NCBI GenBank assembly: GCA_963665845.2
Contig: OY762492.1
Location: forward strand, 2,016,001 to 2,080,000
Reading direction: 5' to 3'
Source of the DNA: Candidatus Poribacteria bacterium
Lineage (GTDB): Bacteria > Poribacteria > WGA-4E > GCA-2687025
Length of the DNA: 64,000 nt
Below are positions 6,337-46,526 of the stretch, piece by piece; position 1 is the first letter of the stretch, and every line of letters starts with the position of its first letter. A program made the position numbers and the translations under genes. The notes below the pieces were generated by a model. It saw only the letters and a list, made by a program, of their open reading frames with translations, made no database searches and was not told the origin of the DNA.

Positions 6337-6541
6337 CAGCCCTTGAGTCTTAAGTTGGGACATGGCGGCATGGGAACGCGGACGGTTTCAGCGGCGCCTC
6401 TGGATTCCCGCACGTTTTACCGCAAGGGCGGGGAATGCACGTCCCCGCGGGCATGTCCTCGTGAAAACGGGGAAGCGGGGGACGATCTGGTTGGCGACGC
6501 TTTTTTCCTATGAATAGGGCGGTCATTCGTTCAAATGTCCG
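6337..6541. mobile_element. MITE family A, degenerate copy with nested insertions
   Basis: TIR-like CAGCCCTTGAGTCTTAAGTTGGGACAT; body matches 29988-30155; right end truncated. Confidence 0.7.
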
Positions 6542-6597
6542 AAAGACAGAGGCGAATAGCAAAAGACGCCGTCCTGCCGCAGTCATTTCTTCGCCGC

Positions 6598-7704
6598 TTA
6601 TTCTTCAGAGGCGTTCTCTTGCGGCGCCTCCGCCTCCGCCTCTTTGATGTCGCCCCACTGCTCATGCTTCTTGCCCGAAAGATCGATGGAGAGAAAACGG
6701 CTCTTGCCCGCCAAAACCCATGTCGGAGAATCGCCGTCGGGCTTGATCAGCTTCTCCTTTCGCGCCGCGACATGCGCCAGGTAAACGCCAATCGGCTTTG
6801 GATTCTTCGGATCAATAGACCCTCCGAAGTAGACGATCCATTTCGAATCGGGCGACCATTCTACATGGTTGACATAGCTCCCGTCCTCCATAAAACGCTC
6901 CGCGCCGGACCCGTCCGAGTTCATCATGTACAATACTAGGTCGCCTGGACCGTCGCGCAAGCTTCCAAACATGATCGTTCGTCCGTCCCGGGACCAAGAA
7001 GGATAAATATCCGTTCTTGGATCATCGGTGAGGTTGACGATATTTGACCCGTCGCTGTTCATGGCATAGATATCGTATTTGACTTTTGCTTCGAGATCCA
7101 GCCTCGGTTCTTCCAAAGCGTCGAACGCGATTTTTTGACCGTCCGGCGACCATGACATGAAACCTGATCCAGGCAGCCGTTCCGGAAAATCGGTCAATTG
7201 AACATGTTTCTTAGTGTGAACATTCACCTTGTAAAGATTCTTTCTAGGGACAGCGTTCTGATTATACCATGTGTTGATAATCGTAACCCATTTCCCGTCG
7301 GGCGACCAAGAAGGGTGTGTGAAAAACCCTTCTTCTCCTTTAGGAAGCCATTCCAGCAGATTCTGGACGTCGCCGGTCCTCAAATCCAGCAGATAGGGTA
7401 TGTAGTTCCATTCGTCTTCGTCGAACACGACCACGACAGCGCGCTTTCCGTCCGGCGACCAGTAGGCGCTGCCTGAAAATCTTGCCTTTCCGTCCCCCAT
7501 CCAGAGTCGGTCGTTCCCGCCGTCCCAATCCATGAGGCGAATCTCAAACCCTTCAGGCGTAAGGTAGGCGATGGTCGGCTTGTCCAGCTTCGTAACATCC
7601 TCTTTCGGTTTCGGCAGGGGCAGGACAGCATGCGCCGACTGCAGACTTGCGCAGAGCAGCAGCGAGGCGGTTGTCAAACAGGCGGCGAATCGAATCTTCA
7701 GCAT
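6598..7704 (-). CDS. Secreted PD40/TolB-like beta-propeller with C-terminal W-x-x-I-K motif
   Basis: Signal peptide ending AHA, repeated WSPDG, ends SIDLSGKKHEQWGDIK plus acidic tail; start chosen by RBS spacing. Confidence 0.88.
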   Translation of the reverse strand: MLKIRFAACLTTASLLLCASLQSAHAVLPLPKPKEDVTKLDKPTIAYLTPEGFEIRLMDWDGGNDRLWMGDGKARFSGSAYWSPDGKRAVVVVFDEDEWNYIPYLLDLRTGDVQNLLEWLPKGEEGFFTHPSWSPDGKWVTIINTWYNQNAVPRKNLYKVNVHTKKHVQLTDFPERLPGSGFMSWSPDGQKIAFDALEEPRLDLEAKVKYDIYAMNSDGSNIVNLTDDPRTDIYPSWSRDGRTIMFGSLRDGPGDLVLYMMNSDGSGAERFMEDGSYVNHVEWSPDSKWIVYFGGSIDPKNPKPIGVYLAHVAARKEKLIKPDGDSPTWVLAGKSRFLSIDLSGKKHEQWGDIKEAEAEAPQENASEE

Positions 7705-7723
7705 GTCCATTCCTTCCCAATGC

Positions 7724-7752
7724 ATTGTAACTGGTCGCTGAATGCGCGTCAA
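7724..7752 (-). promoter_or_regulatory. Putative sigma70 promoter of PD40 gene
   Basis: TTGACG-17bp-TACAAT. Confidence 0.7.
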
Positions 7753-7767
7753 TATAGGCGCGAAGCG

Positions 7768-8031
7768 GACAGTCTCTATACGATGTTTTTGATTTTAGAG
7801 GGTTCCGTTTTGGAATGCGGACGCGGTCTGGGAAAACTCTGGATTCCCGCTTGCGCGGGAATGCATGTCCTCGCGGAAGCGGGGAACGAATAGCCCAATC
7901 ACAGCGGTTGGGGCGCGGTTTCTGGACTCCCCCCTTGAAAAAGGGGGCTGGGGGGGTTTTAGTTCCGGGCGCGGAATCGCGATTAGCAAAACTCAAACGG
8001 ATTTTCGTCGTCGTCGCCTATAGAGACTGCC
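7768..8031. mobile_element. MITE family B copy 1
   Basis: Ends GACAGTCTCTATACG...CGCCTATAGAGACTGCC; homologous (inverted) to 24986-25204; no TSD seen. Confidence 0.8.
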
Positions 8032-8046
8032 CGCATAATAAAATTC

Positions 8047-8075
8047 TTGCGGCGCGCGGGCGGAACCGCTAACAT
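8047..8075 (+). promoter_or_regulatory. Putative sigma70 promoter of J-domain gene operon
   Basis: TTGCGG-17bp-TAACAT with AT-rich upstream tract. Confidence 0.5.
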
Positions 8076-8110
8076 ACTGCATGTCTCAATAGACGCGGCA
8101 TAGATATTTT

Positions 8111-9388
8111 ATGAAAGATTACTATCGCATTTTACAGGCGCACCGAGAGGCGGATCAGGAAACGATCAAAGCCGCCTACCGGTCCTTGACGCGGCGGGTT
8201 CACCCTGACAAGAACCCGAACAACCGCGAATGGGCGGAAGAGCGCATGCGCGAAATCAACGAGGCGTACCATGTGTTGAGCGACGGCGCCAAACGCGCCG
8301 CCTTCGACAGAGAGTATCCCGCCTCATCCCCGAAGAGCGGCTCCGCGTCCAACGAAAAGCTGCTGTTGACGCTGGAACAGAACCGCGCCTTGCGCGATCG
8401 GGTTCAGAAGCTGACGGCGCATCTTGAACGTCAAAGCAAGGAGACGAGCGAACTTCAACAGCAGCTGAAAGAATCGGTACAACGCCGCGAGCGTCTCGAG
8501 AAGGAGCTGGCGGTGGAACGGGAGCGGAATAAGCTGCTTCGGCGCGGCTCTACATCTTCCGCCAAGAAGAAGAAAAACACGCGGATCGGGAAGACGAAGC
8601 AGACAGCGGAAGAGAGTATGGAGACGCGGGTCATGCAGCTGCCCGGCAGCTCCGCGACGATGGTTTTCGTCCGCATACCCGCTTCCATATTTGAAATGGG
8701 CAGCGCGGTCGGAAATCCAGACGAACGCCCTGTTCATCAAGCGGCGCTGGACCAGTTTTGGATCGGCGCCGAACCTGTAACCTGCAGTCAGTTTTCCGCC
8801 TTCGTCAAGACGAACCCGTCATGGAGCAAACGCTCCCTGACTCCCGATCGGCATCCGGACTATCTCAAGCCGTTCAACGGAGACAGCCCCCCGTTCGGAA
8901 AAGAGCGGCATCCTGTGACGCATGTTACATGGACGGCGGCGGCGGCGTTTGCGAAATGGGCTGGTTTTGAATTGCCGACGGAGGCGCAGTGGGAAGGCGC
9001 GGCGCGCGCCGGTCAAGACGGAGAATACGGCGGCGGCAGGTCGTTCATTTCCCCCAACGACGCCAATTTTGCGGGCAAACGGGGCGGAGTCGTCCCGACG
9101 CGCAGCTACCCGCCGAACGCATACGGCGTCTATGAAATGCTCGGCAATGTGTGGGAATGGTGCGCCGATGTCTACGACGCGGCGTTTTACCGCTCCCCAG
9201 AGGCGCTGGAGCCGAACCCGATGCGCGGCGGCGCGGGGGGCGAATCGACGCGCCGCGTTATTCGGGGCGGGTCTTGGCAGAGCCTCTCGTCCGACCTGCG
9301 GGCGTCGGCGCGGGGGCATATGAAAGCGGGAACGGCGTCCATGTTTTGCGGTTTTCGATGCGCGTTTCGCAGTAGCCCATCGTTGTGA
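8111..9388 (+). CDS. J-domain (DnaJ) / coiled-coil / FGE-sulfatase (SUMF1-like) fusion protein
   Basis: DYYRIL..HPD J-domain; LPTEAQWE, PNAYGVYEMLGNVWEW, RGGSW and GFRC. Confidence 0.9.
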   Translation: MKDYYRILQAHREADQETIKAAYRSLTRRVHPDKNPNNREWAEERMREINEAYHVLSDGAKRAAFDREYPASSPKSGSASNEKLLLTLEQNRALRDRVQKLTAHLERQSKETSELQQQLKESVQRRERLEKELAVERERNKLLRRGSTSSAKKKKNTRIGKTKQTAEESMETRVMQLPGSSATMVFVRIPASIFEMGSAVGNPDERPVHQAALDQFWIGAEPVTCSQFSAFVKTNPSWSKRSLTPDRHPDYLKPFNGDSPPFGKERHPVTHVTWTAAAAFAKWAGFELPTEAQWEGAARAGQDGEYGGGRSFISPNDANFAGKRGGVVPTRSYPPNAYGVYEMLGNVWEWCADVYDAAFYRSPEALEPNPMRGGAGGESTRRVIRGGSWQSLSSDLRASARGHMKAGTASMFCGFRCAFRSSPSL

Positions 9389-9400
9389 AGGAGATGCGAG

Positions 9401-10375
9401 TTGAGTCGACCTAAGGTGTTCATAACGCGACCGCTGCCGCCCGTTGCGGACCCGCTCATTCATCGTCTGCGGGAGACATGCGAGGTTGAGATTTGGCATT
9501 CGATGGAGGAACCCGCGCCGACAGCGGAGAAGATACGCGCCCTGGACGGCTTGGCGACCTACGGGCATGAACCAATCACCGACGCGATGATGGCGGAAGC
9601 GCCCAACTTAAAGGTGATCTCCAATATCGGCGTCGGGCATGACCATATCGACTCGGAGGCGGCGCGGCGGAGGGGCGTCGCTGTCGGCAACACCCCGGGC
9701 GTTTTGAGCGGCGCGACCGCCGATATGACCTTCGCGCTGCTGCTGGCGGGGGCGCGTCTGCTGGGTCCGTCTAACCGATATGTCCGCGCGCGTCAGTGGC
9801 GCTCTTACGACCCGAACCTGTTTTGGGGCAGCGAGGTTCATCATTCAACGATCGGCATTGTCGGCATGGGGCGCATCGGTTATGAGGTGGCGAAGCGCGC
9901 CCGCGGCTTCGACATGAACATATTATATTACAAGCGGAATCGGCGCGCGGACTGGGAGCGGGAGCTGGGAATGTCTTACGCGCCGCTGAATGAGTTGCTG
10001 GAGGCGTCCGATTTTGTAACGCTGCATGCGCCGATGTCGCCTGAAACGAAAGAGATGATCGGAGCGGCGGAGCTGAAGCGGATGAAGCGGACGGCCGTTT
10101 TGGTGAACGCGGCGCGCGGCGGAATCGTCGACCATGCGGCGCTGTATGAAGCGTTGACATCGGGCGAGATTGCGGCGGCGGCGCTGGATGTGACGGAGCC
10201 AGAACCGCTTCCGCTCGATAGCCCGTTGATCGATCTGGACAATTGTTTCATCGCGCCGCATCTGGGCAGCGCGACGGTGGAAACGCGGTTGAAAATGATA
10301 CAAATGGCGTTGGATAATTTAATGGCGGGGCTGAACGGAAAACCGCTGCCTTACTCGGTTTTGGAACCTACATGA
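9401..10375 (+). CDS. D-2-hydroxyacid dehydrogenase (glyoxylate reductase/D-glycerate dehydrogenase family)
   Basis: GMGRIG, VNAARG, ALDV.EPEP and PHLGSAT. Confidence 0.93.
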   Translation: MSRPKVFITRPLPPVADPLIHRLRETCEVEIWHSMEEPAPTAEKIRALDGLATYGHEPITDAMMAEAPNLKVISNIGVGHDHIDSEAARRRGVAVGNTPGVLSGATADMTFALLLAGARLLGPSNRYVRARQWRSYDPNLFWGSEVHHSTIGIVGMGRIGYEVAKRARGFDMNILYYKRNRRADWERELGMSYAPLNELLEASDFVTLHAPMSPETKEMIGAAELKRMKRTAVLVNAARGGIVDHAALYEALTSGEIAAAALDVTEPEPLPLDSPLIDLDNCFIAPHLGSATVETRLKMIQMALDNLMAGLNGKPLPYSVLEPT

Positions 10376-11079
10376 TGAGCTCATACGAGAAAATAAGCGT
10401 CGTCATCCCGGTCTATAACGAAAAAGCGACTCTGCTCGAAATCATCGAAAAGGTGCGCTCGGCGGATGTGGCGGGTCTTGAAAAAGAGATTGTGCTGGTG
10501 GACGACTATTCAACGGACGGCTCGCGCAATATGCTGCAGGAAATCGAAGCGTCCGAGCCGCCCGACCTGCGCTTCGGCTACCATGAGGCGAATCAAGGCA
10601 AGGGCGCCGCGCTGCGCACCGGCTTTGAGATCGCGTCCGGCGATCTGATCATCATTCAGGACGCCGATCTGGAGTACAACCCTGACGAGTATCCGAAGCT
10701 GCTGGAGCCGCTGCTGTCGGACGAGGCGGATGTGGTGTACGGGTCGCGTTTTCTGAAGGGCGCGCAGAGCGAGGCGTGGCACACCTTCGGCAACCGCTTT
10801 TTGACGGCGGTTTCAAACCTGTTCACCGGGCTGAAGTTGACCGACATGGAGACATGCTACAAGCTGATGCCGGCGGAGGTGGTGAAGAATATCCCGCTGC
10901 GCTCCGACCGGTTCGGCTTTGAGCCGGAGATCACGGCAAAGCTGGCGCGCCGGCGCATGCGAATCGTGGAGCGTCCGATCACATACAGCCGGCGCGGATA
11001 CGACGAGGGAAAGAAGATCAACTGGAAAGACGGAGCCGCCGCGATCTACCACATCATACGGTACCGCATCGCCGACTAA
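10372..11079 (+). CDS. GT2 glycosyltransferase (polyprenol-phosphate glycosyltransferase-like)
   Basis: VVIPVYNE, VDDYSTDGS, NQGKGAA, QDADLEY and TDMETCYK. Confidence 0.92.
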   Translation: MMSSYEKISVVIPVYNEKATLLEIIEKVRSADVAGLEKEIVLVDDYSTDGSRNMLQEIEASEPPDLRFGYHEANQGKGAALRTGFEIASGDLIIIQDADLEYNPDEYPKLLEPLLSDEADVVYGSRFLKGAQSEAWHTFGNRFLTAVSNLFTGLKLTDMETCYKLMPAEVVKNIPLRSDRFGFEPEITAKLARRRMRIVERPITYSRRGYDEGKKINWKDGAAAIYHIIRYRIAD

Positions 11080-11089
11080 GAGACGGTCG

Positions 11090-11279
11090 CTGACCTTATG
11101 CATAAAGTAGGGACATTTGAATTGACGATCGCTCTATTCATGGGAAAAAGGCTTCGCCAACCAGACCGTCCCCCGCTTACGCGAGGGCATGCATTCCCGC
11201 GTAAGCGGGAATCTAGAGGCGGCGAAGAAGACGTCCGCGTTCGCCCGCCAGCATGTCCCTACTTAAGACGTGAGGTCAG
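11090..11279. mobile_element. MITE family A, full length with 22-nt insert
   Basis: TIRs CTGACCTTATGCATAAAGTAGGGACAT / ATGTCCCTACTTAAGACGTGAGGTCAG; internal ATTCCC-N8-GGGAAT. Confidence 0.85.
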
Positions 11280-11348
11280 ACAGTTTCTATGCGCGGCTAA
11301 AACCCCCCTAGCCCCCCTTTTCAAGGGGGGAATCGGACGAGGCGGGGG

Positions 11349-12374
11349 TTACGCTTCCACCTCCCATGTGTCGCCGGATTCAAACAGCTCTTGGAGCGTT
11401 TGACCGCCGCCTTTTTCCGTTTCAGCGTTCACCTGATCAGCCATCATGTCTTCGTAGCATGGGCGTTCGATGTTTCGGATGACGCCGACGGGGCGCGGGA
11501 AATCTTTGCGCTCTTGGAATGTGGCAAGGATGCCGGCAAGCAGTCCCGATTCGTCATGTTCGTCATGGACGAGCGCGTCGTCGGCGCCGTAGGCGCCCGC
11601 TTTCAGATCGATGACATGCGGCTGCAGTCCGTCCAGCCGTATCGCCTTGTCCCGTTCGCGCCCGAAGATCATCGGCTTTCCATGCTCAAGGTAAAGCATG
11701 GCGTCCATCTTCGAATTTTTGTCAACAAATTCTGCGAAGGCTCCCCCGTTGAACACGTGGCAGTCCTGGTAGATTTCAAAAAAGACGGCTCCATGATGCT
11801 CCGCCGCGCGTCGAATCATGGCTCCCATGTGTTTCAGATCGCGGTCGATGGAGCGGATGATCATGGGCGCGTTGGCGGCAAGCGCAATGCGCAGCGGGTT
11901 GAACGGCGTGTCGATGGAGCCGACCATCGATTTGTGTACCACTTTTTGTCCTGTCGGCGATGTGGGCGAGTACTGCCCTTTCGTCAAGCCGTACACCTGG
12001 TTGTTGAAAAGCAGCAGCGTGACATCCAGATTTCGCCTGAAGAGATGCAGGAGGTGGTTGCCGCCGATGCTGAGACTGTCGCCGTCCCCTGTGACGATCC
12101 AGATGTCCAGATCGGGCCGCGTCGCTTTCAGCCCGGTGGCGATGGCGGGCGCCCGTCCGTGTATCGTGTGAAAGCCGTAGGTACCCATGTAGTATGGAAA
12201 ACGGCTTGAGCATCCGATGCCGGAGATGAAGGCAACCTCATGCGGCGGGCGCCCAAGAGCAGGGAGCGTCCGCTTGATGGAGGCGAGGATGGCGTAATCC
12301 CCGCATCCGGGGCACCACCGCACCGTCTGGTCAGATTCGAAATCTTCTGGCGTGAGCGTTTGTGCAGCTTTCAT
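11349..12374 (-). CDS. korB: 2-oxoacid:ferredoxin oxidoreductase beta subunit
   Basis: WCPGCGD, SGIGCS, HGRA, GDGD and YGLTKGQYSPT; ATG 12374 with GGAG. Confidence 0.93.
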   Translation of the reverse strand: MKAAQTLTPEDFESDQTVRWCPGCGDYAILASIKRTLPALGRPPHEVAFISGIGCSSRFPYYMGTYGFHTIHGRAPAIATGLKATRPDLDIWIVTGDGDSLSIGGNHLLHLFRRNLDVTLLLFNNQVYGLTKGQYSPTSPTGQKVVHKSMVGSIDTPFNPLRIALAANAPMIIRSIDRDLKHMGAMIRRAAEHHGAVFFEIYQDCHVFNGGAFAEFVDKNSKMDAMLYLEHGKPMIFGRERDKAIRLDGLQPHVIDLKAGAYGADDALVHDEHDESGLLAGILATFQERKDFPRPVGVIRNIERPCYEDMMADQVNAETEKGGGQTLQELFESGDTWEVEA

Positions 12375-14262
12375 TGATCGCGGACGCTCCTCTCTTCTGT
12401 TCGTCAAGCATCGATTCTGCCTTGCAGACAATCTCGGATGCGAATATGGGCTGTCCTTGTACCTTGTTGAACCCTTCCGCATCAATCAGGTACTTGGCGC
12501 GGATATAGTGGCGCAGCTGCCCCAGATTCATTTCTGGGATGAGAATACGCTTGAACCGCTTGAGGATCTCCCCAAGGTCGTTTGGCAGCGGGTTGAGCCA
12601 GCGCAGATGAACGCGCGCGACGGAGCTTCCTTTAGCGAGCAGCTGATCGGTCGCCGCGCGGATGGAGCCGTAGGAGCTTCCCCATCCCAGGATGAGCAGG
12701 TCGCCTTCAGGGTCGCCGTCCACCTTGGTGGGCGGTATCTCGCGCGCGACGCGCTGCACCTTTTCAGCCCTGTACAGCGTCATTTTTTCATGGTTGTCGG
12801 AATCGTAGCTCACATTTCCCGACCCGTCCTCTTTTTCAAGCCCGCCGATGCGGTGTTCCAGACCCGGCGTCCCAGGGACTGCCCAGGGTCTTGCCAGCGT
12901 GGCGGGATCGCGCGAATACGGTTCAAAGCCTTCAGGGTCCGCCGCAAACTGCGGCTGAATGTCCGGCAGGCTGCTTAGGTCCGGAATGGGCCAAGGCTCC
13001 GTTCCGTTGCCGAGGTAGCCGTCCGACAGGAGCAGGACAGGCGTCATATACTTGACGGCGATGCGCGCCGCTTCATAGATGACGTCGAAGCAGTCTGACG
13101 GGCGCGATGTCGCCAGGACGGGCAGCGGGCTTTCGCCGTGCCGTCCGCCGATGGCTTGAAACAGGTCCGACTGCTCCGTCTTGGTCGGCAAGCCGGTGCT
13201 GGGTCCGCCGCGTTGAATGTTGCAGACGATCATCGGCAGCTCAACCGAGATGGCGAGGCTCAACGCCTCCTGTTTGAGCGCGATGCCGGGTCCGGAGGAG
13301 GCGGTCACGGCGAGCGAGCCGCCGTATGCCGCGCCGACGGCGGCGCACATCGCGGCGATTTCATCTTCCGCTTGGAAGGTACGCGCGCCGAATCGCTTGT
13401 AGCTCGCCAGCTCATGAAGGATCGCGCTTGCCGGCGTGATCGGATAGCCGGAGTAAAAGAGCGGCAGACCCGACTTTTGAGAGGCGGCAAGCAAGCCGAA
13501 AGCAAGCCCTGTGTTGCCGTTGATGTTGCGGTATTTGCCCGGCTGCAGTATAGCGGGCTTCACCTCATAGGACGCCGCAAACAGATCGGTCGCTTCGGCA
13601 TAGATATGCCCCGCCTTGAGAGCGGCGATGTTCGGCTCAATGTACTTCCGGCGGTTCGGTCGATCAAAGTAGGTCTGGATCCACTTGACGGTGTGTTCCA
13701 GCGGTCTATTGAAGAGCCAGAAGACCATGCCGAGGGCGAACATGTTTTTGGCGCGGTCTATCTCTTTTTTGGAAAGGCGGTCTTTCTCTTCTTCAAGCTT
13801 GGCGAACTCTTCCAGCGCCTTGTTGGTCAGGTCGATCATATCGACCGTGATGACCTGGTATTTGTCCAGATCGCTGGTTTCGAGCGGGTTCTGGTCGTAG
13901 CCGGCGAGTCGGAGGTTTTTGGCGCTGTTGAAGGACGGCTCATTGGTGAGAATGATGCCGTTCGGCTTGACGAGATGCAGGCTCATTTTGAGCGCGGCGG
14001 GGTTCATGGCGATCAGCACATCAACCTGGTCGCCAGGCGTGTGGATGTCTTTGCTGCTGAATCGCACCTGGAAGCTGCTGATGCCGTGTAAAGTGCCGGC
14101 TGGGGCGCGTATTTCGGCTGGGAAGTCCGGCAGCGTGCTGAGGTCGTTGCCGAACAGGGCGGAGGTGTTGGCGAACTGGTCGCCGGACACCTGCATCCCG
14201 GTGCCTGAGTCGTCCGCAAATCGGATGACCGCTTCTTGAAGTTCTACAGCTGATTTCGCCAT
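12331..14262 (-). CDS. korA: 2-oxoacid:ferredoxin oxidoreductase alpha (gamma-alpha fused) subunit
   Basis: AEIRAPAG, YPITPAS, QAEDEIAA and RGGPSTGLPT. Confidence 0.93.
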   Translation of the reverse strand: MAKSAVELQEAVIRFADDSGTGMQVSGDQFANTSALFGNDLSTLPDFPAEIRAPAGTLHGISSFQVRFSSKDIHTPGDQVDVLIAMNPAALKMSLHLVKPNGIILTNEPSFNSAKNLRLAGYDQNPLETSDLDKYQVITVDMIDLTNKALEEFAKLEEEKDRLSKKEIDRAKNMFALGMVFWLFNRPLEHTVKWIQTYFDRPNRRKYIEPNIAALKAGHIYAEATDLFAASYEVKPAILQPGKYRNINGNTGLAFGLLAASQKSGLPLFYSGYPITPASAILHELASYKRFGARTFQAEDEIAAMCAAVGAAYGGSLAVTASSGPGIALKQEALSLAISVELPMIVCNIQRGGPSTGLPTKTEQSDLFQAIGGRHGESPLPVLATSRPSDCFDVIYEAARIAVKYMTPVLLLSDGYLGNGTEPWPIPDLSSLPDIQPQFAADPEGFEPYSRDPATLARPWAVPGTPGLEHRIGGLEKEDGSGNVSYDSDNHEKMTLYRAEKVQRVAREIPPTKVDGDPEGDLLILGWGSSYGSIRAATDQLLAKGSSVARVHLRWLNPLPNDLGEILKRFKRILIPEMNLGQLRHYIRAKYLIDAEGFNKVQGQPIFASEIVCKAESMLDEQKRGASAINESCTNAHARRFRI

Positions 14263-14286
14263 ATCAAGCGCTTTCTACTGTTTGAG

Positions 14287-14829
14287 TTAGGCGCCCTCCG
14301 GGGAGCGCGTCGGCCTCCGTTCGATGGGCTGCGGCGGCAAATTCAGCACTTCCACTGGAAAATGATCCACCACAAACTCCATGATATTTCGGACGGAGAC
14401 GACCGCCAAAGCCCGCTGCTCATCGTCCACAATCGGCAGATGGCGGTAATGTCCGTCATACATACGGCGGATTGCCGTACCTATTGTATCGTCACAATTC
14501 GCCGTTGTAGGATTTTTCACCATGATTTCGCTGACCAGCTTTTCGGCGGAGGCGTCAATCTCCGGCGCCGCTTTTAGCAAAAGATCGCGTTCGGTGATGA
14601 TTCCCACGATCCGTTTCTCCTCGTCCACGACCGGCAAACAACCGACCCTGTTCGCAATCATCGCTTCAACGACCTGCGCGATCGTTGTATCCGGCTTGAC
14701 CATGAGACCGACGTTGCGCATCTGAAGTTCGCTCACAGGCGTCTCAAACGCCACATCGGGCAATTCTGGATACACATGATCAATTTCTTCTTCAAAACGG
14801 TCCAGGTCTTCCTGTACGGGATCGTACAT
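14287..14829 (-). CDS. CBS-domain protein
   Basis: CBS pair (VGIITERDLL, YRHLPIVD); AGGAG RBS before ATG 14829. Confidence 0.88.
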   Translation of the reverse strand: MYDPVQEDLDRFEEEIDHVYPELPDVAFETPVSELQMRNVGLMVKPDTTIAQVVEAMIANRVGCLPVVDEEKRIVGIITERDLLLKAAPEIDASAEKLVSEIMVKNPTTANCDDTIGTAIRRMYDGHYRHLPIVDDEQRALAVVSVRNIMEFVVDHFPVEVLNLPPQPIERRPTRSPEGA

Positions 14830-14866
14830 CTCATAACTCCTATAACGCTCATGGAGCGGTTTCAGT

Positions 14867-15298
14867 TTACTTCGATTCTCCCAGCTCATGCGCTTCAAGC
14901 CGCTGCGCCAGATAGTCGACCATCGAGCGCACCGACACAATGCAGCCCAACTTGTCCTCCTCGTCAAAGAGCGGAATGTACCGGTATCCGCCGACATGCA
15001 TATGGTGCAGCGCAAACACGATGCTGTCGTCCATATGCAGCGTTGTCGGGCGCGCCGTCATCAGCTGAGAAATCGGCTGGTCAAGGCTCTCGTCGCCCTG
15101 CAGAAACAGCTTGTTGAGAACATCCCGCTCGGTGAAAATGCCGAGAAGAGCGCCGTCGTCGTCCACAATGAGAACGGCGCCTCCGTTGCGCACTTTCATC
15201 ATTTCGATGGCGTCGCGCGCGGGAGTGTCCGGCGGAGCGACAAGCGGCTTGCACACGTACAACTCGGTGATCGGCTGCTGCAATTTTTCAGCGTCCAT
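14867..15298 (-). CDS. CBS-domain protein
   Basis: CBS pair (LGIFTERDVL, YRYIPL); GGAGAGGAG RBS. Confidence 0.88.
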   Translation of the reverse strand: MDAEKLQQPITELYVCKPLVAPPDTPARDAIEMMKVRNGGAVLIVDDDGALLGIFTERDVLNKLFLQGDESLDQPISQLMTARPTTLHMDDSIVFALHHMHVGGYRYIPLFDEEDKLGCIVSVRSMVDYLAQRLEAHELGESK

Positions 15299-15316
15299 GT
15301 TTTTCTCCTCTCCTGT

Positions 15317-16333
15317 TTAGTCGCCTGACATCATCTCGGCGATGGTCGCCTCTCGACCTTCTTCCGAACTTTTGATGCCGGCGAAGACCATCGCCATGGA
15401 TTTGATATTGTCCTGACTGGAGCATTCCGGCTCCCGCCCCTCCGAAATCGCCGAAACGAATTCAGCTAGCAGGGCGTCCTGCCCCTGAAGCGGCGGCTTG
15501 TCTAAAGGCTCGGCGCGCCTGCCCGGCTCCTTGGCTGGGCTAAAGGCGGTGCGGTAGATCGTATCCTCTTCCCATGTGAGCGACCCGTTCGGACCCTCAA
15601 TGCGCCATTCGCCGTTCCACGGGGACGACTTGCCGACGCTGCTGCCGAGGGCGTGGTGCGTCGCTGTCAACCCGCCTTCAAACTGAAAAATGGCGGTGTG
15701 TCCAGCGTCTCCCGCGTGCCATCCCCATTCAGGGTTCCATGTCTGGGCGTAGACGGAGATCGGCTCGCGGTTCAACACATAACGCATCATGTCGAAATGG
15801 TGGATGCCCATGTCGGTGATGAGCGGGTACGGCATCGTCGTGTAATGGGAGCCGGGGCGGGACGCCCATGCCTTGTAAAAGCCGACGACCGCATGCTTCG
15901 GCGCGCCGATGACGCCTTCGTCTAGAAGTCTGCGCGTTGTGCGCGGGACGGCGCCGAAGCGGTAGTTCTGCGCGATCATGTGCGTCAAGCCGCTCTCTTT
16001 GGCGGCGGCGGTCATGCGCAGCGCCGCTTCAAACGTGTCGCTCATCGGCTTTTCGCCGATCACATGGAGTCCATGTTGAAACGCTTCCATGGCGACCGGC
16101 TCATGCGCGGCGGGCGGGGTGACGTCGCAGACGAAGTCGGCGTCCGCGTTTTGAACAGCCGCCTCTATCGACGCAAAGACGCGGTCGGGCGGAAGGTTCC
16201 AGTCGCGCGTTACGGCTTCTCTCCTGCCTTCGCTCAGCTCCACATAGCCGACCAGTTCGACATTCGGGTTGTTGTTGCAGACGTTGAGCCAGCTTCGGGC
16301 GCGTCCGCCGAGTCCGACCAGCAAACCTTTCAT
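15317..16333 (-). CDS. Gfo/Idh/MocA family oxidoreductase
   Basis: VGLGG Rossmann start, EKP, QNYRF and DMGIHHFD. Confidence 0.9.
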   Translation of the reverse strand: MKGLLVGLGGRARSWLNVCNNNPNVELVGYVELSEGRREAVTRDWNLPPDRVFASIEAAVQNADADFVCDVTPPAAHEPVAMEAFQHGLHVIGEKPMSDTFEAALRMTAAAKESGLTHMIAQNYRFGAVPRTTRRLLDEGVIGAPKHAVVGFYKAWASRPGSHYTTMPYPLITDMGIHHFDMMRYVLNREPISVYAQTWNPEWGWHAGDAGHTAIFQFEGGLTATHHALGSSVGKSSPWNGEWRIEGPNGSLTWEEDTIYRTAFSPAKEPGRRAEPLDKPPLQGQDALLAEFVSAISEGREPECSSQDNIKSMAMVFAGIKSSEEGREATIAEMMSGD

Positions 16334-16340
16334 ACGCTTT

Positions 16341-16874
16341 TCATCCGCTTTCGTTTGAGTTGTTGGCGTTCGTTCGCTCCCATTCTAACAGCCATGCTTT
16401 GCGGTGTATTTGTCCGCCGTATCCTCCGAGCGTTCCGTCTTTGGCGATGACGCGGTGGCACGGGATGAAGAGAGCGATCGGATTTCGGGCGTTGGCGCTG
16501 CCGACAAACCGCGCGCCGAGGCGCCCGTAGTTCAGCTGTCGGGCGATGTCGGAATAGGCGCGCGTTTCGCCGGGGGGTATCTGTTGAACGGCGCGCAGAG
16601 CGTTCATCGTCGGCTGCGGGAGTACGGGATCGACAGGCAAGCCGTTCAGCGCGTTCACATCGCCTTCAAAGTACGCCTCCAGCTTCTCGGCGGCATGGCG
16701 GGCGAATTTGCGGCGCGCGGGGGGCGCGTCGGGATGGGCGTTCCGCCAAGCTTGGCAGCGTTCATCGAACTTCTCGCAAGTTTCGAACGCGGCGGCAACG
16801 ACAGCGTCCGCGGAGGTGGCGGCGCGGAAGGCTCCAAGCGGCGTTTCAATCTGCTGAACGATGAGCGGTTCCAC
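16341..16874 (-). CDS. ogt: Methylated-DNA--protein-cysteine S-methyltransferase
   Basis: IPPGETRAY and NPIALFIPCHRV active site; GTG start. Confidence 0.93.
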   Translation of the reverse strand: MEPLIVQQIETPLGAFRAATSADAVVAAAFETCEKFDERCQAWRNAHPDAPPARRKFARHAAEKLEAYFEGDVNALNGLPVDPVLPQPTMNALRAVQQIPPGETRAYSDIARQLNYGRLGARFVGSANARNPIALFIPCHRVIAKDGTLGGYGGQIHRKAWLLEWERTNANNSNESG

Positions 16875-16888
16875 GAATCTGCCTCGCG

Positions 16889-17536
16889 TTAAAAATAGAC
16901 GGTAAAACCGATGCCGCCGACGACAGACGCCTGCGTTCGGGAGTCTTTGTCCACTTTGGTCGTGTCGGAGAGGATGTTTCTCTTCGCTTCAGTTTCGTAT
17001 GAAATGATGCGTTCAGTGCGGGTGTACCGCTCTCTTGACACGCTTTGACCGAATTCGATATTCAGCCCGAACCGTTCTTGCGGCGCGACCCCGAACCATT
17101 TGTCCACATAAAACTCCACGCCGAGGAGAAGGTGTCCGATCGTTTCATACTCCTCATATTTGTCATCGCGGACGATGTAGTTTTTAAATACGGGCGGGCT
17201 GTCGGCAGGGTACGTGTATTCTGGATGTTCGTATAGGCTGTCGTACAGGTCGCCTCTCAATCCGACGCCTGGGTTCAGGTAGATTTTGTACCCCGCGGCG
17301 CGTCCGACCACGATGGGCGCTTGCAGTCCGATCAGGTAGTCGCTGTCGGACCCATCTTGCCAGTAATGCCCGACAAGCCGCAGATGGAGCGGGTCCAATC
17401 CGCGGTAGGAGGCGCAGAGTCCGCCGATGTAGGGGGCGATGCCTTGCATTCCAGCTCCCCATTTAAAGGTGTTGTCGGCGTTGGCTCCGCCCGCCGCCGC
17501 GAGAATTGCCGCGCATAGAAACAACCGCTTGAACAT
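16889..17536 (-). CDS. Putative small outer-membrane beta-barrel protein
   Basis: Signal peptide ending ANA, amphipathic strands, C-terminal GFTVYF. Confidence 0.6.
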   Translation of the reverse strand: MFKRLFLCAAILAAAGGANADNTFKWGAGMQGIAPYIGGLCASYRGLDPLHLRLVGHYWQDGSDSDYLIGLQAPIVVGRAAGYKIYLNPGVGLRGDLYDSLYEHPEYTYPADSPPVFKNYIVRDDKYEEYETIGHLLLGVEFYVDKWFGVAPQERFGLNIEFGQSVSRERYTRTERIISYETEAKRNILSDTTKVDKDSRTQASVVGGIGFTVYF

Positions 17537-17703
17537 GACGCATCGCTCTCCGTCTTCAGAATTTGCGTTGCTTTGAGTTGATCATAGCGCATTGAGGCGC
17601 GCGATGCAAACGGCCGATCCATGCTGTCCCCCGCTTCCGCGAGGGCATGCATTTCCGCGCAAGCGGGAATCTTAAGGCGTCGCAGCCGTTGCGCCCGCCC
17701 TTT

Positions 17704-17870
17704 AAACCCCCCTAGCCCCCCTTTTCAAGGGGGGAATCGGAGGAGGCGCCCCTTTTCAAGGGGAAATCGGAGGCGGCGCCCCTTTTCAAGGGAGGAATCG
17801 GAGGAGGCGCCCCTTTTCAAGGGGAATCGGAGGAGGCGACGCCATTTTCAAGGGGAATCGGAGGAGGCGG
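17704..17870. repeat. Tandem array (5 x ~30 bp) of CCCCTTTTCAAGGGG hairpin repeat
   Basis: Unit GGCGCCCCTTTTCAAGGGGAATCGGAGGA; last unit supplies the WD40 stop codon. Confidence 0.9.
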
Positions 17871-19797
17871 GGCTGTTCCGGTCGGGGACGACCCATAAGA
17901 GGAGCGTTCCGTCGCCGCTTGTACTGGCGAGCGTCTTGCCGTCCGGCGAAAAGCCTACCCAGTTCACGTCGCCCGTATGCCCCTCAAAGGTGTAGAGAAG
18001 CGCGCCGTCCCTGCTCCATACCCGAACGGCGTTGTCCTTGCTTCCGCTGGCGATCATCGTACCGTCAGGGGAATACGCCGCCGACATGACCGCCTCTTTA
18101 TGTTTAAGCGTCTGAAGCAGCTTGCCCGTCTCGGCGTCGTATATCCGAACCGCCCCGTCTTCAAATGCGGCGGCGAATGTCGCTGGTGTAGAACGCCTGT
18201 CCGGCGAATAGACCGCCGAATGAATGCCGCTCGCGTGTTTGAACGTTTTGAGCAGATCGCCGGCGTCGGCGCTCCATAGGCGTATCGTCTTGTCCCGCCC
18301 GGCGCTGAGGATCGTTTTTCCGTCCGGCGAATAGACCGCCGACACGACCGCGTCCGTATGTCCAGTAAGCGTTTTGAGAGGCGCGCCTGTTCCTGCGTCC
18401 CATGTCCGTATCGTACGGTCGGCGCCGGCGGATACGACCGCAATTGCGTTTGGGGAAAACGACAGATGCTCAATTGCCTCCGTATGCCCTTTGAGACTAA
18501 GTATCGACTCCCCTGTCGCTGCGTTTCCCAGCTCAATGGAATGGCTTGTTGTCGCCCAGACAGCCATCGTTCCGTCCGGCGAATACGCGAAACATTTTTC
18601 TGACGCGCGCGCAAAGTGACTGTCGAGACGATTTCCGGCGCGGAGGTCCCACATATACAGAAGCCCAAAATATGGGAGGATGATCTTTGTTCCGTCCGGC
18701 GAAAGCGCGGCGAACTCAAAGCCGCCGGTATGCCCCTCAATTTCATGAACAAGCGCGCGTATCTCGATGTTCCAAATGCAAATAGACCCCAAGAATTCCA
18801 AACCTGCAATGAAATGTCCGTCAGGAGAAAAAGCGAACTGGAGGAAACTGGCATCGAACGGCTGGAGAGGCGATCCATAGGCGGCGCTCCACATCCGCAG
18901 ACGTTCTCCGGCGCCGGCAAGAATACGACCGTCCGGCGAAAACGCCACCGAATGGTTCCAACGCGCCCCTAGAATATTGAGAAGCGCGCCTCCCCCGCCG
19001 ATAGACTCGGCGTTCCAGATACGCGCGGCATTGATGTCGCTGCTGGCGATCCTCTTTCCGTCCGGCGAATACGCGACCGATTCAACCGCTTCCCGATGCC
19101 CTTTAAATGTATCGAGAAGCGCGCCCGTCTCGGCGCTCCATATTTTGACGGTCTTGTCGCCGCTGCCGCTGGCGATCTTCGTCCCGTCCGGCGAGTAGGC
19201 GATGGCGTTGACCCTGCCCTGATGCCCCTCAAGCGTCTGGATCGGATCGCCCGTCTCGGCGTTCCATATTCGGATCGTCTTGTCGCCGCTGCCGCTGGCG
19301 ATCATCGTTCCGTCCGGCGAATAGGCGACCGCATTGATTATGTCCTGATGCCCTTCAAGCGTCTGGATCGGATCGCCCGTTTCGGCATTCCATATTTTGA
19401 CGGTCTTGTCGCCGCTTCCGCTGACAATTTTTGTCCCGTCCGGCGAATACGCTGCCGAATAGACAGGCTCCTTATGTCCTCGGAGCAGGGCAATCTCTTT
19501 TCCGTAGCGCGCGTCGTAGATCCATACGCCGATGCTTCCGCCGACCGCGATTCGGCGGCTGTCCGGCGAATAAGCGATGGAATGCGCGTAGCCTTTGCCG
19601 ATGCGCATCTTGGCGCCATCGGGAAGACCGAGCGGAGAAACCTGCGGGAAGCTTCCCGGACGAAAGGTAACAGTAATCGACATCAGAGAGTCCTGATAAG
19701 CGGCGCGCCGGATGGAAGACGCCTCAACAGAGACGCAGGCGAAGACGCATGCGCAGAGCCAATAAAGGAGCCGTTTGGCGCCGCTAAGGTTGTTCAT
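17848..19797 (-). CDS. Secreted WD40-repeat protein
   Basis: Signal-like N-terminus, LPDGAKMRIGKG, many GH..AYSPDG..W repeats; AAGGAG RBS. Confidence 0.92.
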   Translation of the reverse strand: MNNLSGAKRLLYWLCACVFACVSVEASSIRRAAYQDSLMSITVTFRPGSFPQVSPLGLPDGAKMRIGKGYAHSIAYSPDSRRIAVGGSIGVWIYDARYGKEIALLRGHKEPVYSAAYSPDGTKIVSGSGDKTVKIWNAETGDPIQTLEGHQDIINAVAYSPDGTMIASGSGDKTIRIWNAETGDPIQTLEGHQGRVNAIAYSPDGTKIASGSGDKTVKIWSAETGALLDTFKGHREAVESVAYSPDGKRIASSDINAARIWNAESIGGGGALLNILGARWNHSVAFSPDGRILAGAGERLRMWSAAYGSPLQPFDASFLQFAFSPDGHFIAGLEFLGSICIWNIEIRALVHEIEGHTGGFEFAALSPDGTKIILPYFGLLYMWDLRAGNRLDSHFARASEKCFAYSPDGTMAVWATTSHSIELGNAATGESILSLKGHTEAIEHLSFSPNAIAVVSAGADRTIRTWDAGTGAPLKTLTGHTDAVVSAVYSPDGKTILSAGRDKTIRLWSADAGDLLKTFKHASGIHSAVYSPDRRSTPATFAAAFEDGAVRIYDAETGKLLQTLKHKEAVMSAAYSPDGTMIASGSKDNAVRVWSRDGALLYTFEGHTGDVNWVGFSPDGKTLASTSGDGTLLLWVVPDRNSPASSDSP

Positions 19798-19824
19798 GTG
19801 TTCTCCTTGCCATGCCGCATTGTT

Positions 19825-19854
19825 ATCGTAACACGGCGCCGGGCGGGGCGTCAA
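19825..19854 (-). promoter_or_regulatory. Putative sigma70 promoter of WD40 gene
   Basis: TTGACG-18bp-TACGAT with TGn extension. Confidence 0.6.
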
Positions 19855-19864
19855 GACTGCAGAG

Positions 19865-19954
19865 CTGACCTTACGTCTTAAGTTGGGACATGTCGGCATT
19901 CGAACGCGGGCGTCGCTGTCGGCGCCTCTGGATTCCCGCTTGCGCGGGAATGAC
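19865..19954. mobile_element. MITE family A half copy
   Basis: TIR CTGACCTTACGTCTTAAGTTGGGACAT; homology stops at the palindrome. Confidence 0.75.
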
Positions 19955-20048
19955 AAGAGGGGATGCGGGAATGACGGCTTGGTTGGCGGCGCCTTGCGTC
20001 AGCGGCGTCGGCGGGGTATCGTTACCGCAACGCGCGGAGGAAAGGCGC

Positions 20049-20897
20049 ATGAAAATGAAAACGCTGGCAGGTTTGTCGATCAGTTTGCTGTTGTCGTTCG
20101 CCTGGGGCTGTTCAGGGGGAAAGGGGCAGATCGTCTTGAACGAGAGGTCGGGCGGAGCGGCGATGTCCGAGGAGGCCGCGCTGACGCTGCCGGCAGAGCT
20201 GCGTTCGTCCGCATCCTTGCTCACGGCGCTGTATGTGGACGGCAACCGCGTCGATTACGAGGGTCTTGCCGCGTCGGAAGAGTTTGCCGAATACCGCCGG
20301 CTCGCGCAGTCGCTGAACGATTTCGACCTCTCGCTGCTCACGACGCGCGGAGAGAAACTGGCGTTCTGGATCAACCTATACAACGCGGCGATCCTGCATG
20401 CAACGCTGGAGTCGGGCGTTGAGGAGAGCGTGCGGGAGCAGGCGGATTTTTTTGACCGCTACGCATACCGCGTCGGCGGGTTGACCTTCACGCCGAACCA
20501 GATTGAGCATGGCGTTCTGCGGGGAGTTCTGGAAGCGTCGGACCCGCGGGCGGCGCATGCGGTCTTGCCGATAGAGCCGCGCCTGCATTTTGCGTTGAAC
20601 TGCGCCTCCAAGAGCTGCCCGCCCATCCATGTTTATACGGCGGAGCAGATCGAGTCGCAGCTGGATTTGGCGACCCGCTTCTTTTTAAATCAGGAGACCG
20701 AGGCGCGGGTGGACATAGCGAACAATGCGGTCTATTTGACGCGGCTCTTCGACTGGTATGCCGCAGATTTTGAGGAAGGCGTCATCCCGTTCCTGTTGAG
20801 GCATCTGGACGACAGCCCCCAGCGCGACTATCTTGAGAAGCGCGGCGGCGTCATCGACATACGGTACAACGATTACGATTGGAGTTTGAACCGCTAA
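20049..20897 (+). CDS. DUF547-domain lipoprotein
   Basis: Lipobox AWGC; LAFWINLYNA, IEHGVLR and PRLHFALNCASKSCP. Confidence 0.88.
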   Translation: MKMKTLAGLSISLLLSFAWGCSGGKGQIVLNERSGGAAMSEEAALTLPAELRSSASLLTALYVDGNRVDYEGLAASEEFAEYRRLAQSLNDFDLSLLTTRGEKLAFWINLYNAAILHATLESGVEESVREQADFFDRYAYRVGGLTFTPNQIEHGVLRGVLEASDPRAAHAVLPIEPRLHFALNCASKSCPPIHVYTAEQIESQLDLATRFFLNQETEARVDIANNAVYLTRLFDWYAADFEEGVIPFLLRHLDDSPQRDYLEKRGGVIDIRYNDYDWSLNR

Positions 20898-20921
20898 ACC
20901 TGACGTTGACGCTTGAGTTAT

Positions 20922-21094
20922 CTGACCTTACGTCTTTAGCTGAGACATGCCGGCGGGCGAACGCGGACGGTTTCTGCGGCGCCTCTAGATTCCCGCTTAC
21001 GCGGGAATGCATGTCCTCGCGGAAGCGGGGGACGGTCTGGTTGGCGGCGCCTTTCTCCCATGAATAGATCATTCGTCGGTTCAGATGAGGTTGG
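20922..21094. mobile_element. MITE family A copy with 22-nt insert and damaged right end
   Basis: CTGACCTTACGTCTTTAGCTGAGACAT end; body matches other copies. Confidence 0.75.
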
Positions 21095-24985: not shown

Positions 24986-25204
24986 GGCAGTCTCTATAGG
25001 CGATGATGTACGAAAATCCTGTTTGAGGGCGCAGCGAAACCCCCCCAGCCCCCCTTTTCAAGGGGGAATCTAGAAACCCGCGCCTTACCGTCGTCATCGG
25101 GCGGCTGTCATTCCCCCGTAAGCGGGAATCCAGAGTTTTTTCCAGACAGGCTCCGCATTCCAAAACGGACTTCTAAAGTCAAATCATCGCCTGTAGGTAC
25201 TGCC
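24986..25204. mobile_element. MITE family B copy 2 with 8-bp target-site duplication
   Basis: 22-bp imperfect TIRs GGCAGTCTCTATAGGCGATGAT / ATCATCGCCTGTAGGTACTGCC; TTTAATCT at 24978-24985 and 25205-25212. Confidence 0.9.
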
Positions 25205-29987: not shown

Positions 29988-30155
29988 CTGACCTCATGTC
30001 TTTAGTGGGGACATGTCGGCATGGAAACGCGGACGGTTTCGGGGTGGACTCTGGATTCCCGCTTACGCGGGAATGACGACCAGGTTGATGACGCTTTTTT
30101 CCCATGAATAGAGAGGTCATTCGTTCAAATGTCCCAACTTTCGGCGTGAGGTCGG
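29988..30155. mobile_element. MITE family A, full length (168 bp)
   Basis: Both TIRs present; flanked by direct repeat GTTTGA. Confidence 0.85.
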
Positions 30156-35125: not shown

Positions 35126-35293
35126 CTGACCTCATGCTGAAAGTCGGGACATTTGAACGAATGATCGCTCTATTCATGGGAAAAAAGCGTCATCAACCAG
35201 GTCGTCATTCCCGCGTAAGCGGGAATCTAGAGGCGCCGCAGAAGACGTCCGCGTTCGCATGCCGACATGTCCCAACTTTAGGAATGAGGTCAG
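35126..35293. mobile_element. MITE family A, full length (168 bp)
   Basis: Both TIRs present; flanks ATGAAAG / ATGAAAA. Confidence 0.85.
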
Positions 35294-46359: not shown

Positions 46360-46526
46360 CTGACCTGACGCCTAAAGTTGGGACATGTTGGCATGCGAAC
46401 GCGGACGTCTTCTGCGGCGCCTCTAGATTCCCGCTTACGCGGGAATGACGACCTGGTTGATGACGCTTTTTTCCCATGAATAGCGCGGTCATCGTTCAAA
46501 TGTCCCGACTTTCAGCATGAGGTCAG
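46360..46526. mobile_element. MITE family A, full length, between divergent promoters
   Basis: Both TIRs present; no TSD. Confidence 0.85.

Follow-up and report, generated by a model that had tools for sequence, protein, structure and literature searches.

A 22-nt hairpin unit within palindromic repeats, and within itself, in a Candidatus Poribacteria genome and beyond

The DNA considered here, hereafter the window, is a stretch of 64,000 nucleotides (nt) from a Candidatus Poribacteria bacterium (assembly GCA_963665845.2, contig OY762492.1, positions 2,016,001 to 2,080,000), whose genome (G000; 3.98 Mb in 3 contigs, 89.96% complete) holds about 868 loci of the palindrome ATTCCC-N8-GGGAAT (1736 over both strands). 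This repeat matches the NTS consensus CGTCATTCCCGCGMAVGCGGGAATCYRG (174 exact copies, 341 if T is allowed in the loop) and occurs both free and within two MITEs (miniature transposable elements with inverted repeats), MITE A and MITE B. A preliminary description of the window had reported a 22-nt unit as an optional insert directly 5' of ATTCCC, and the window indeed contains four exact matches to it and one with three mismatches, against 0 in 100 shuffles. By match and fold, units lie in MITE B at 7864..7885 (+), beside the NTS/dRS3 hairpin at 7843..7862 (-); in MITE A at 11170..11191 (-), with a GTAA loop, beside the hairpin at 11193..11212 (+); in a free repeat at 17628..17649 (-), beside an ATTTCC variant of the hairpin at 17651..17670 (+); and in MITE A at 21010..21031 (+), beside the hairpin at 20989..21008 (-). 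At 6438..6481 (+), an outer unit with its tag mutated to CACG, 44 nt long together with the copy nested in it, lies in a MITE A remnant at the GT^CATT site and carries in its loop an inner unit, a TGAAAA-loop variant recognised by match and fold at 6452..6473 (+; 6451-6472 if the junction G is included). The NTS-type host hairpin next to it (6404..6436, -) has a loop 12 nt longer; this variant (CCCTTGCGGTAAAACG type) recurs at about 50 further loci and is possibly another optional insert. Four sibling hairpins, one of MITE B type at 25110..25129 (+) and three in MITE A at 30055..30074 (-), 35207..35226 (+) and 46427..46446 (-), read GTC-ATTCCC or its complement without the insert, as the preliminary description had held. 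The outer unit, the host hairpins and the empty siblings were read from the sequence, and no target duplication is seen at the insertions in the window, again in agreement with that description.

The fold is stronger on the strand opposite to the one first described, in 5/5 window copies. On this strand the unit is a hairpin with a 4-nt tag, 22 nt in total, in which CATG forms the tag, a stem of 7 bp includes a T.G wobble and the loop is of GNAA type (pattern CATG-YCCYCG-N6-CGGGGR). Unlike a classical MITE, it has a 4-nt unpaired tag at one end and no target duplication. Its ends were located from the 123 exact copies in G000, of which, in the frame first described, 66 begin with T and 57 with C, and from the 140 copies with at most one mismatch, which are directly followed by CATT in 138 cases and directly preceded by GT in 127. 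As the T-first copies would in that frame require the empty site GTTATTCCC, which occurs 11 times in G000, and not GTCATTCCC, which occurs 1081 times, the true frame lies one base to the left, with the unit reading Y-CCCCG..CATG and the site GT^CATT. The copy at 7864..7885 ends in A, and only the shifted boundary restores GTCATT there; at the nested inner copy the original boundary fits equally well, owing to the junction G. The insertion next to the palindrome stands as first described, its boundary was one base off, and the host at 17651 reads ATTTCC.

Across G000 the degenerate pattern has 169 matches, one of them unrelated, leaving 168 counted as copies: 139 at GT^CATT, which is the 5' tag of the NTS/dRS3 repeat, 27 preceded by the left half of a second unit, and 2 inside the 3' arm of the repeat. 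Self-nesting, noted in the preliminary description as a single case at 6437-6480, is a recurrent feature, the full nested junction being present in 25 of the 27; half-nested deletion forms of the unit also occur, and the apex variants CGCGTAAGCG and CGTGAAAACG are shared by units and host repeats. A sister module with the tag CCTG (ATAG-CCTG-CCCCCGTGAAAACGGGGG) directly precedes the repeat's TCATT, on the top strand of that repeat, in 34 copies on contig C1 of G000 (e.g. 325390, 820687-820808 and 3403038). Its relatives include loci of Gammaproteobacteria and 17 viral-contig stretches, some of them iterated. The ends of the sister module are unsure, and no empty site for it was found.

A direct record of movement comes from the congeneric genome G001, where one copy (L373) stands in unique DNA directly before a ribosome-binding site. 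The orthologous place in G000 (C1:3569100^3569101) is empty, and the two differ by 22 nt with no duplication. G001 also contains further site types, nests two and three deep and one copy in another hairpin family. The pattern matches 47 times in G001, 46 in G041, 8 in G042, 7 in G043 and 4 in G044, with 0 for the reversed controls, and the carriers are Poribacteria-like bacteria, Binatia and Gammaproteobacteria. The distribution across phyla is patchy and the unit is rare, being found in 0/39 other family or class relatives and in 0/400 other genomes of the phylum of G043. In records of Binatia and Gammaproteobacteria the exact 22-mer is located at another site and on the other strand of the repeat (AAAG^CGGG, as read on its top strand, or CAAG^CGGG). 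Moreover, the unit is not specific to the NTS/dRS3 repeat: its metagenome hosts were assigned by eye to at least seven unrelated repeat families, and for one unrelated family the empty allele, AAAG^TGGG, is present in a plasmid (L344 versus L111). A plasmid search with L104 returned host-type repeats only. A loose pattern gave 192 matches over metagenome and viral loci, 79 with an imperfect stem and many others attributable to chance. For about 23 of the 34 metagenome matches with repeat-type loops that were folded, removal of exactly 22 nt places the junction inside a stem-loop, a count made by eye and without a shuffle control. Six Poribacteria loci repeating G001 contexts were counted once; a Nitrospinota match (L035) with no clear host was excluded from the counts, and two matches in Solirubrobacterales (L025, L070) were dropped as chance matches in coding-like DNA. 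The orthologous empty/filled pair, the different site in other phyla and the unrelated host families show that the unit itself moves, and from the identical copies in distant lineages we infer horizontal spread.

The unit is also found on phage contigs. In three 44-kb phages (G045, G046 and G047; L224, L212 and L249) a palindromic motif, TGTKTGASTCAMAC, occurs in about 35 copies, frequently placed before ribosome-binding sites, and the unit directly follows a few of these copies. No GIY-YIG or RAYT match was found in these three phages.

One ancient gain, or an error of assembly, was considered as the source of all copies, and the preliminary description had named both as outcomes that would speak against a mobile unit. 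Public contigs do not bridge the nested locus at 6437-6480; those of a strain at about 94% identity contain no repeat blocks, hence no empty and filled alleles could be compared by locus. One public contig, spanning 16845-17684 with 0 differences, supports the unit at 17628-17649. The three site types in G000, the additional ones in G001, the occurrence in other phyla and the 25 full nested junctions, together with the deeper nests of G001, leave a single gain or an artefact with a negligible probability.

MITE A is a conventional MITE, with 6-7-bp duplications in 22 of 63 paired copies and a 371-aa DDE_Tnp_1 gene between the same ends (L364, C1:561321-562588), which is likely its autonomous partner. 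The unit is present in 47 of 141 parsed copies, in at least ten alleles. On the tree of these 141 copies (of 201 BLAST hits, the 60 unparsable ones being left out; 135 columns, many forks unresolved), presence is unclustered: it changes 39 times, compared with 39.7 when the labels are shuffled, supported branches force at least 10 of the changes, and one pair of copies differing at 1 column is discordant in fill. After correction, neither fill nor allele is associated with any of 45 flanking columns. The tree and the linkage results exclude one inherited gain, and gene conversion is compatible with both. Copies of MITE A that occupy similar positions in the two genomes G000 and G001 (L021, L019) have different junctions; as this makes their orthology unsure, they were left aside.

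The form of the unit offers a first indication of how it may move. Because the hairpin is strand-specific, the orientation is fixed at each type of site and the targets lie in or beside hairpin loops, the unit probably moves as single-stranded DNA. The junctions also show a weak base preference: of 66 distinct, non-independent ones, 56 have A at -3 and 44 have G at -1. Several site types have G immediately 5' of the unit, in contrast to the A of the common empty host. The nested site of G000 has G before the unit and 1 matching empty variant, the self-nests of G001 have G in 5 cases and A in 1, and for the repeat-loop site of G001 there is no exact empty variant with G. Either the unit selects rare G variants as its targets, or its two ends can each move by one base, as would result from a 22-nt circle opened on either side of its last purine.

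These features recall the chemistry of single-strand transposases, and the preliminary description had proposed an ultra-short hairpin mobilised in trans, possibly by ssDNA/HUH-type chemistry. Mobilisation in trans without duplication gains support from the several target sites, the several phyla and the orthologous empty/filled pair; for the HUH part no enzyme was found in G000, G001, G041 or G042. A Y1/HUH transposase (RAYT- or IS200-like) acting in trans, for example from a since-lost plasmid or phage, could peel and paste the unit with the CATG tag as guide. The 4-nt tag 5' of the hairpin, the precise ends and the missing duplication match such chemistry (guide pairing: PMC8266576), phage contigs bear the unit, and A at -3 and G at -1 could pair with the T and C of CAT, at junctions which are non-independent. 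However, the 3' end GGGR misfits the same guide rule, and there is one hairpin only. Y1_Tnp (PF01797) has no match in G000 or in 3/5 other carriers, and NF047646 (RAYT) matches in 1/8 genomes; G000, G001, G041 and G042, which account for 270/281 pattern matches, have neither, in assemblies about 90% complete where this is stated. Among carriers, whose assemblies are incomplete, a Y1 HUH transposase is present in G043 and, broken, in G044 only. TnpB was found in 0/8 genomes and Y2_Tnp also in 0/8, the latter in a search whose positive control gave no signal either. RVT_1 (reverse transcriptase) matches among carriers only in G043, with none in G000, G001, G041 and G042. The HUH route is therefore considered possible but doubtful.

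The other enzymes named as candidates in the preliminary description, besides RAYT and TnpA(Y1), were IS110, GIY-YIG and DUF559 proteins; DUF559 has no match in G000, and IS110 and GIY-YIG genes are both present. IS110-family elements, represented by nine PF02371 matches (L004-L012, on C1), all lie at the NTS repeat with the site GTCATT^CCCG, the left junction being visible in 7/9 and repeat halves on the right in 9/9. A recombinase which targets the very repeat that hosts the unit could in principle move it, but its site is 4 nt from that of the unit, the element ends are unlike the unit, and the varied targets would hardly suit one programmed target. The lack of any PF02371 match in G001, G041 and G042 largely refutes this explanation, which appears very improbable.

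The GIY-YIG candidate is a single 102-aa gene in G000 (L001, C1:2298872), located between inverted arrays of host repeats, two of which are filled. Its assignment rests on a match to Pfam PF01541, and the layout is that of Ssn genes. Genes flanked by units in G000 are otherwise ordinary. Homologues of L001 at 60-91% identity are present in G001, G041 and G044. In G041 (e.g. L077, L081-L089), one intact Ssn-like gene and about ten decayed copies lie between inverted NTS repeats, which suggests that the NTS-ssn-NTS unit was copied many times there. Beside an Ssn-like gene of G044 (L073:1870-1905), a hairpin bears a CCTG tag on one strand and a CATG tag on the other.

The account we tentatively prefer, while granting it somewhat less than an even chance as a whole, is that of a gene-less 22-nt hairpin which, in several phyla, has been inserted in one piece at many different sites, leaving no target duplication. 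It likely moves as single-stranded DNA, with a small GIY-YIG nuclease of Ssn type in the host possibly doing the cutting and host repair enzymes the joining, and in G000 recombination between repeats likely multiplies it further. The apex common to the unit and the host repeats favours a link to Ssn, and Ssn together with host repair is a plausible, if tentative, choice of enzyme.

Several observations weigh against this account. G043, with 7 unit copies, has no Ssn match, and G042 has only weak fragments or a distant GIY-YIG gene. The listed open reading frames that neighbour copies in metagenomes and phages (77 of 166, Pfam; 37 of 49, PHROGs) include no recurring nuclease or transposase and no enzyme gene flanked by units. 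In Neisseria, the cut made by SsnA is 7 nt 5' of GT^CA and yields a 20-nt fragment, and no observed unit site lies there; SsnA is described as a nuclease, and the accessible part of the source does not mention strand transfer (PMC11893778). By inspection, the unit fails the published SRM motif (HGTCWY start, RNCYNB end), reading TGTCCY, and several of its hosts are not of SRM type. Insertions in G000 show no bias between leading and lagging strands (87:81 versus 376:398, p 0.5), in a test where the GC skew signal is weak. Filling depends on context (MITE A 40/160, MITE B 8/16, free repeats 31/532; MITE A versus free, p 1e-10), and tandem arrays are polar, with the outermost copy filled and the hairpin-proximal copy empty in 27 cases and the reverse in 1 (p 2e-7). 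Owing to this context dependence and polarity, copy number overstates the insertion events, and the 168 copies are not 168 insertions; many copies in G000 may come from recombination between repeats. The idea, raised in the preliminary description, of one origin spread by gene conversion accordingly fails as to the single origin and finds some support as to amplification.

A further explanation does without any dedicated enzyme, with nuclease-resistant mini-hairpin fragments captured at hairpin breaks or template-switched, followed by gene conversion among repeats. Chimeric and polar arrays, half-nested deletion forms, the higher fill in MITEs with long shared flanks and the resemblance of the unit to the reverse complement of the host repeat are in keeping with this scenario, as is the position of repeats at synteny breaks. 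Random capture of fragments would be expected to leave ragged ends, whereas the ends are constant to within one base across unrelated hosts without shared junction homology, and in unique DNA as well; a process without any enzyme is accordingly judged unlikely. Polar half-repeat arrays in which the complete hairpin is empty were observed for example at C1:2217053, 520476 and 3462013, and repeat blocks coincide with synteny breaks relative to G000 at 5/5 compared G001 loci (L013, L015, L017, L019, L021).

A bolder version of the Ssn account, to which we give a low probability, would regard the unit as a parasite of hairpin repeats across bacteria, excised and re-joined as single-stranded DNA and passing between co-habiting phyla. 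It would require Ssn-type chemistry with a strand transfer not yet known, perhaps through a 22-nt circle opened one base apart, and the insertion at GT^CATT would switch off cleavage of the host repeat. 

The preferred account itself carries a prediction on cutting. For SsnA, the three bases preceding the palindrome are what cleavage mainly depends on, and G26 is one of two bases mutated to block cutting (PMC11893778). Insertion at GT^CATT changes these three bases from GTC to TGC, and because of the dependence of SsnA on them, filled repeats are predicted, from their sequence, to be bound by Ssn and to remain uncut.

No description of the 22-nt unit was found in the literature, which was searched mostly outside subscription journals. 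The closest known kind appears to be the small dispersed repeats (SDRs) of cyanobacteria: by analogy, the unit seems to work like an SDR without being an SDR family by host. SDRs of Nostocaceae, reportedly treated by Elhai et al. in 2008, are said to be 21-27 nt long and self-nesting, and no enzyme is known to move them. Likeness lies in the 22-nt length, the fixed ends and the precise insertion into palindromes and into itself; unlike SDRs, the unit crosses phyla with identical sequence, is hosted by many hairpins and is itself similar to a hairpin of Ssn type. SDR5 is inserted precisely into the palindrome HIP1, and among cyanobacteria rich in HIP1 none but Nostocaceae were found to have SDRs, according to the accessible parts of PMC4390886 and PMC5861425.

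Among other systems, the NTS/SRM repeats with their Ssn nuclease (Chenal et al. 2025, PMC11893778) are close to the host repeat, which fits the NTS consensus and flanks the 102-aa GIY-YIG gene on both sides. The unit lacks their GTC tag and CYAG tail, and its sites differ from the SsnA cut. No optional insert in such repeats is described in the accessible part of that paper, where spread of NTS driven by Ssn is presented as a hypothesis only. REP/REPIN-RAYT systems and the PATEs of IS200/IS605 share with the unit a tag and hairpin, the lack of target duplication and a weak base preference 5' of the site (PMC8266576, PMC3116915, PMC3119063); they differ in their Y1 enzyme, not found in the main carriers, and in being REP doublets or 52-bp terminal-only PATEs instead of a single 22-nt hairpin. 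CGTC-1 REPs, or CGTC repeats, have no known transposase according to the accessible part of PMC3733652. SMR-A of Haloquadratum, whose mechanism is unknown, likewise inserts without duplication into palindromes of other mobile elements, which it was proposed to inactivate, although it is about 110 bp long, archaeal and bounded by terminal inverted repeats (PMC3119063).

The unit, which likely ranks among the smallest known units of mobile DNA, bears on the open question of how repeats of 20-30 nt move, since it offers exact ends, many known targets and an empty/filled pair, along with a single candidate enzyme encoded in the same genome. Furthermore, its identical copies in unrelated phyla mark DNA exchange between those phyla and, if filled repeats escape cutting by Ssn, the choice of incoming DNA that is cut would change through the unit.

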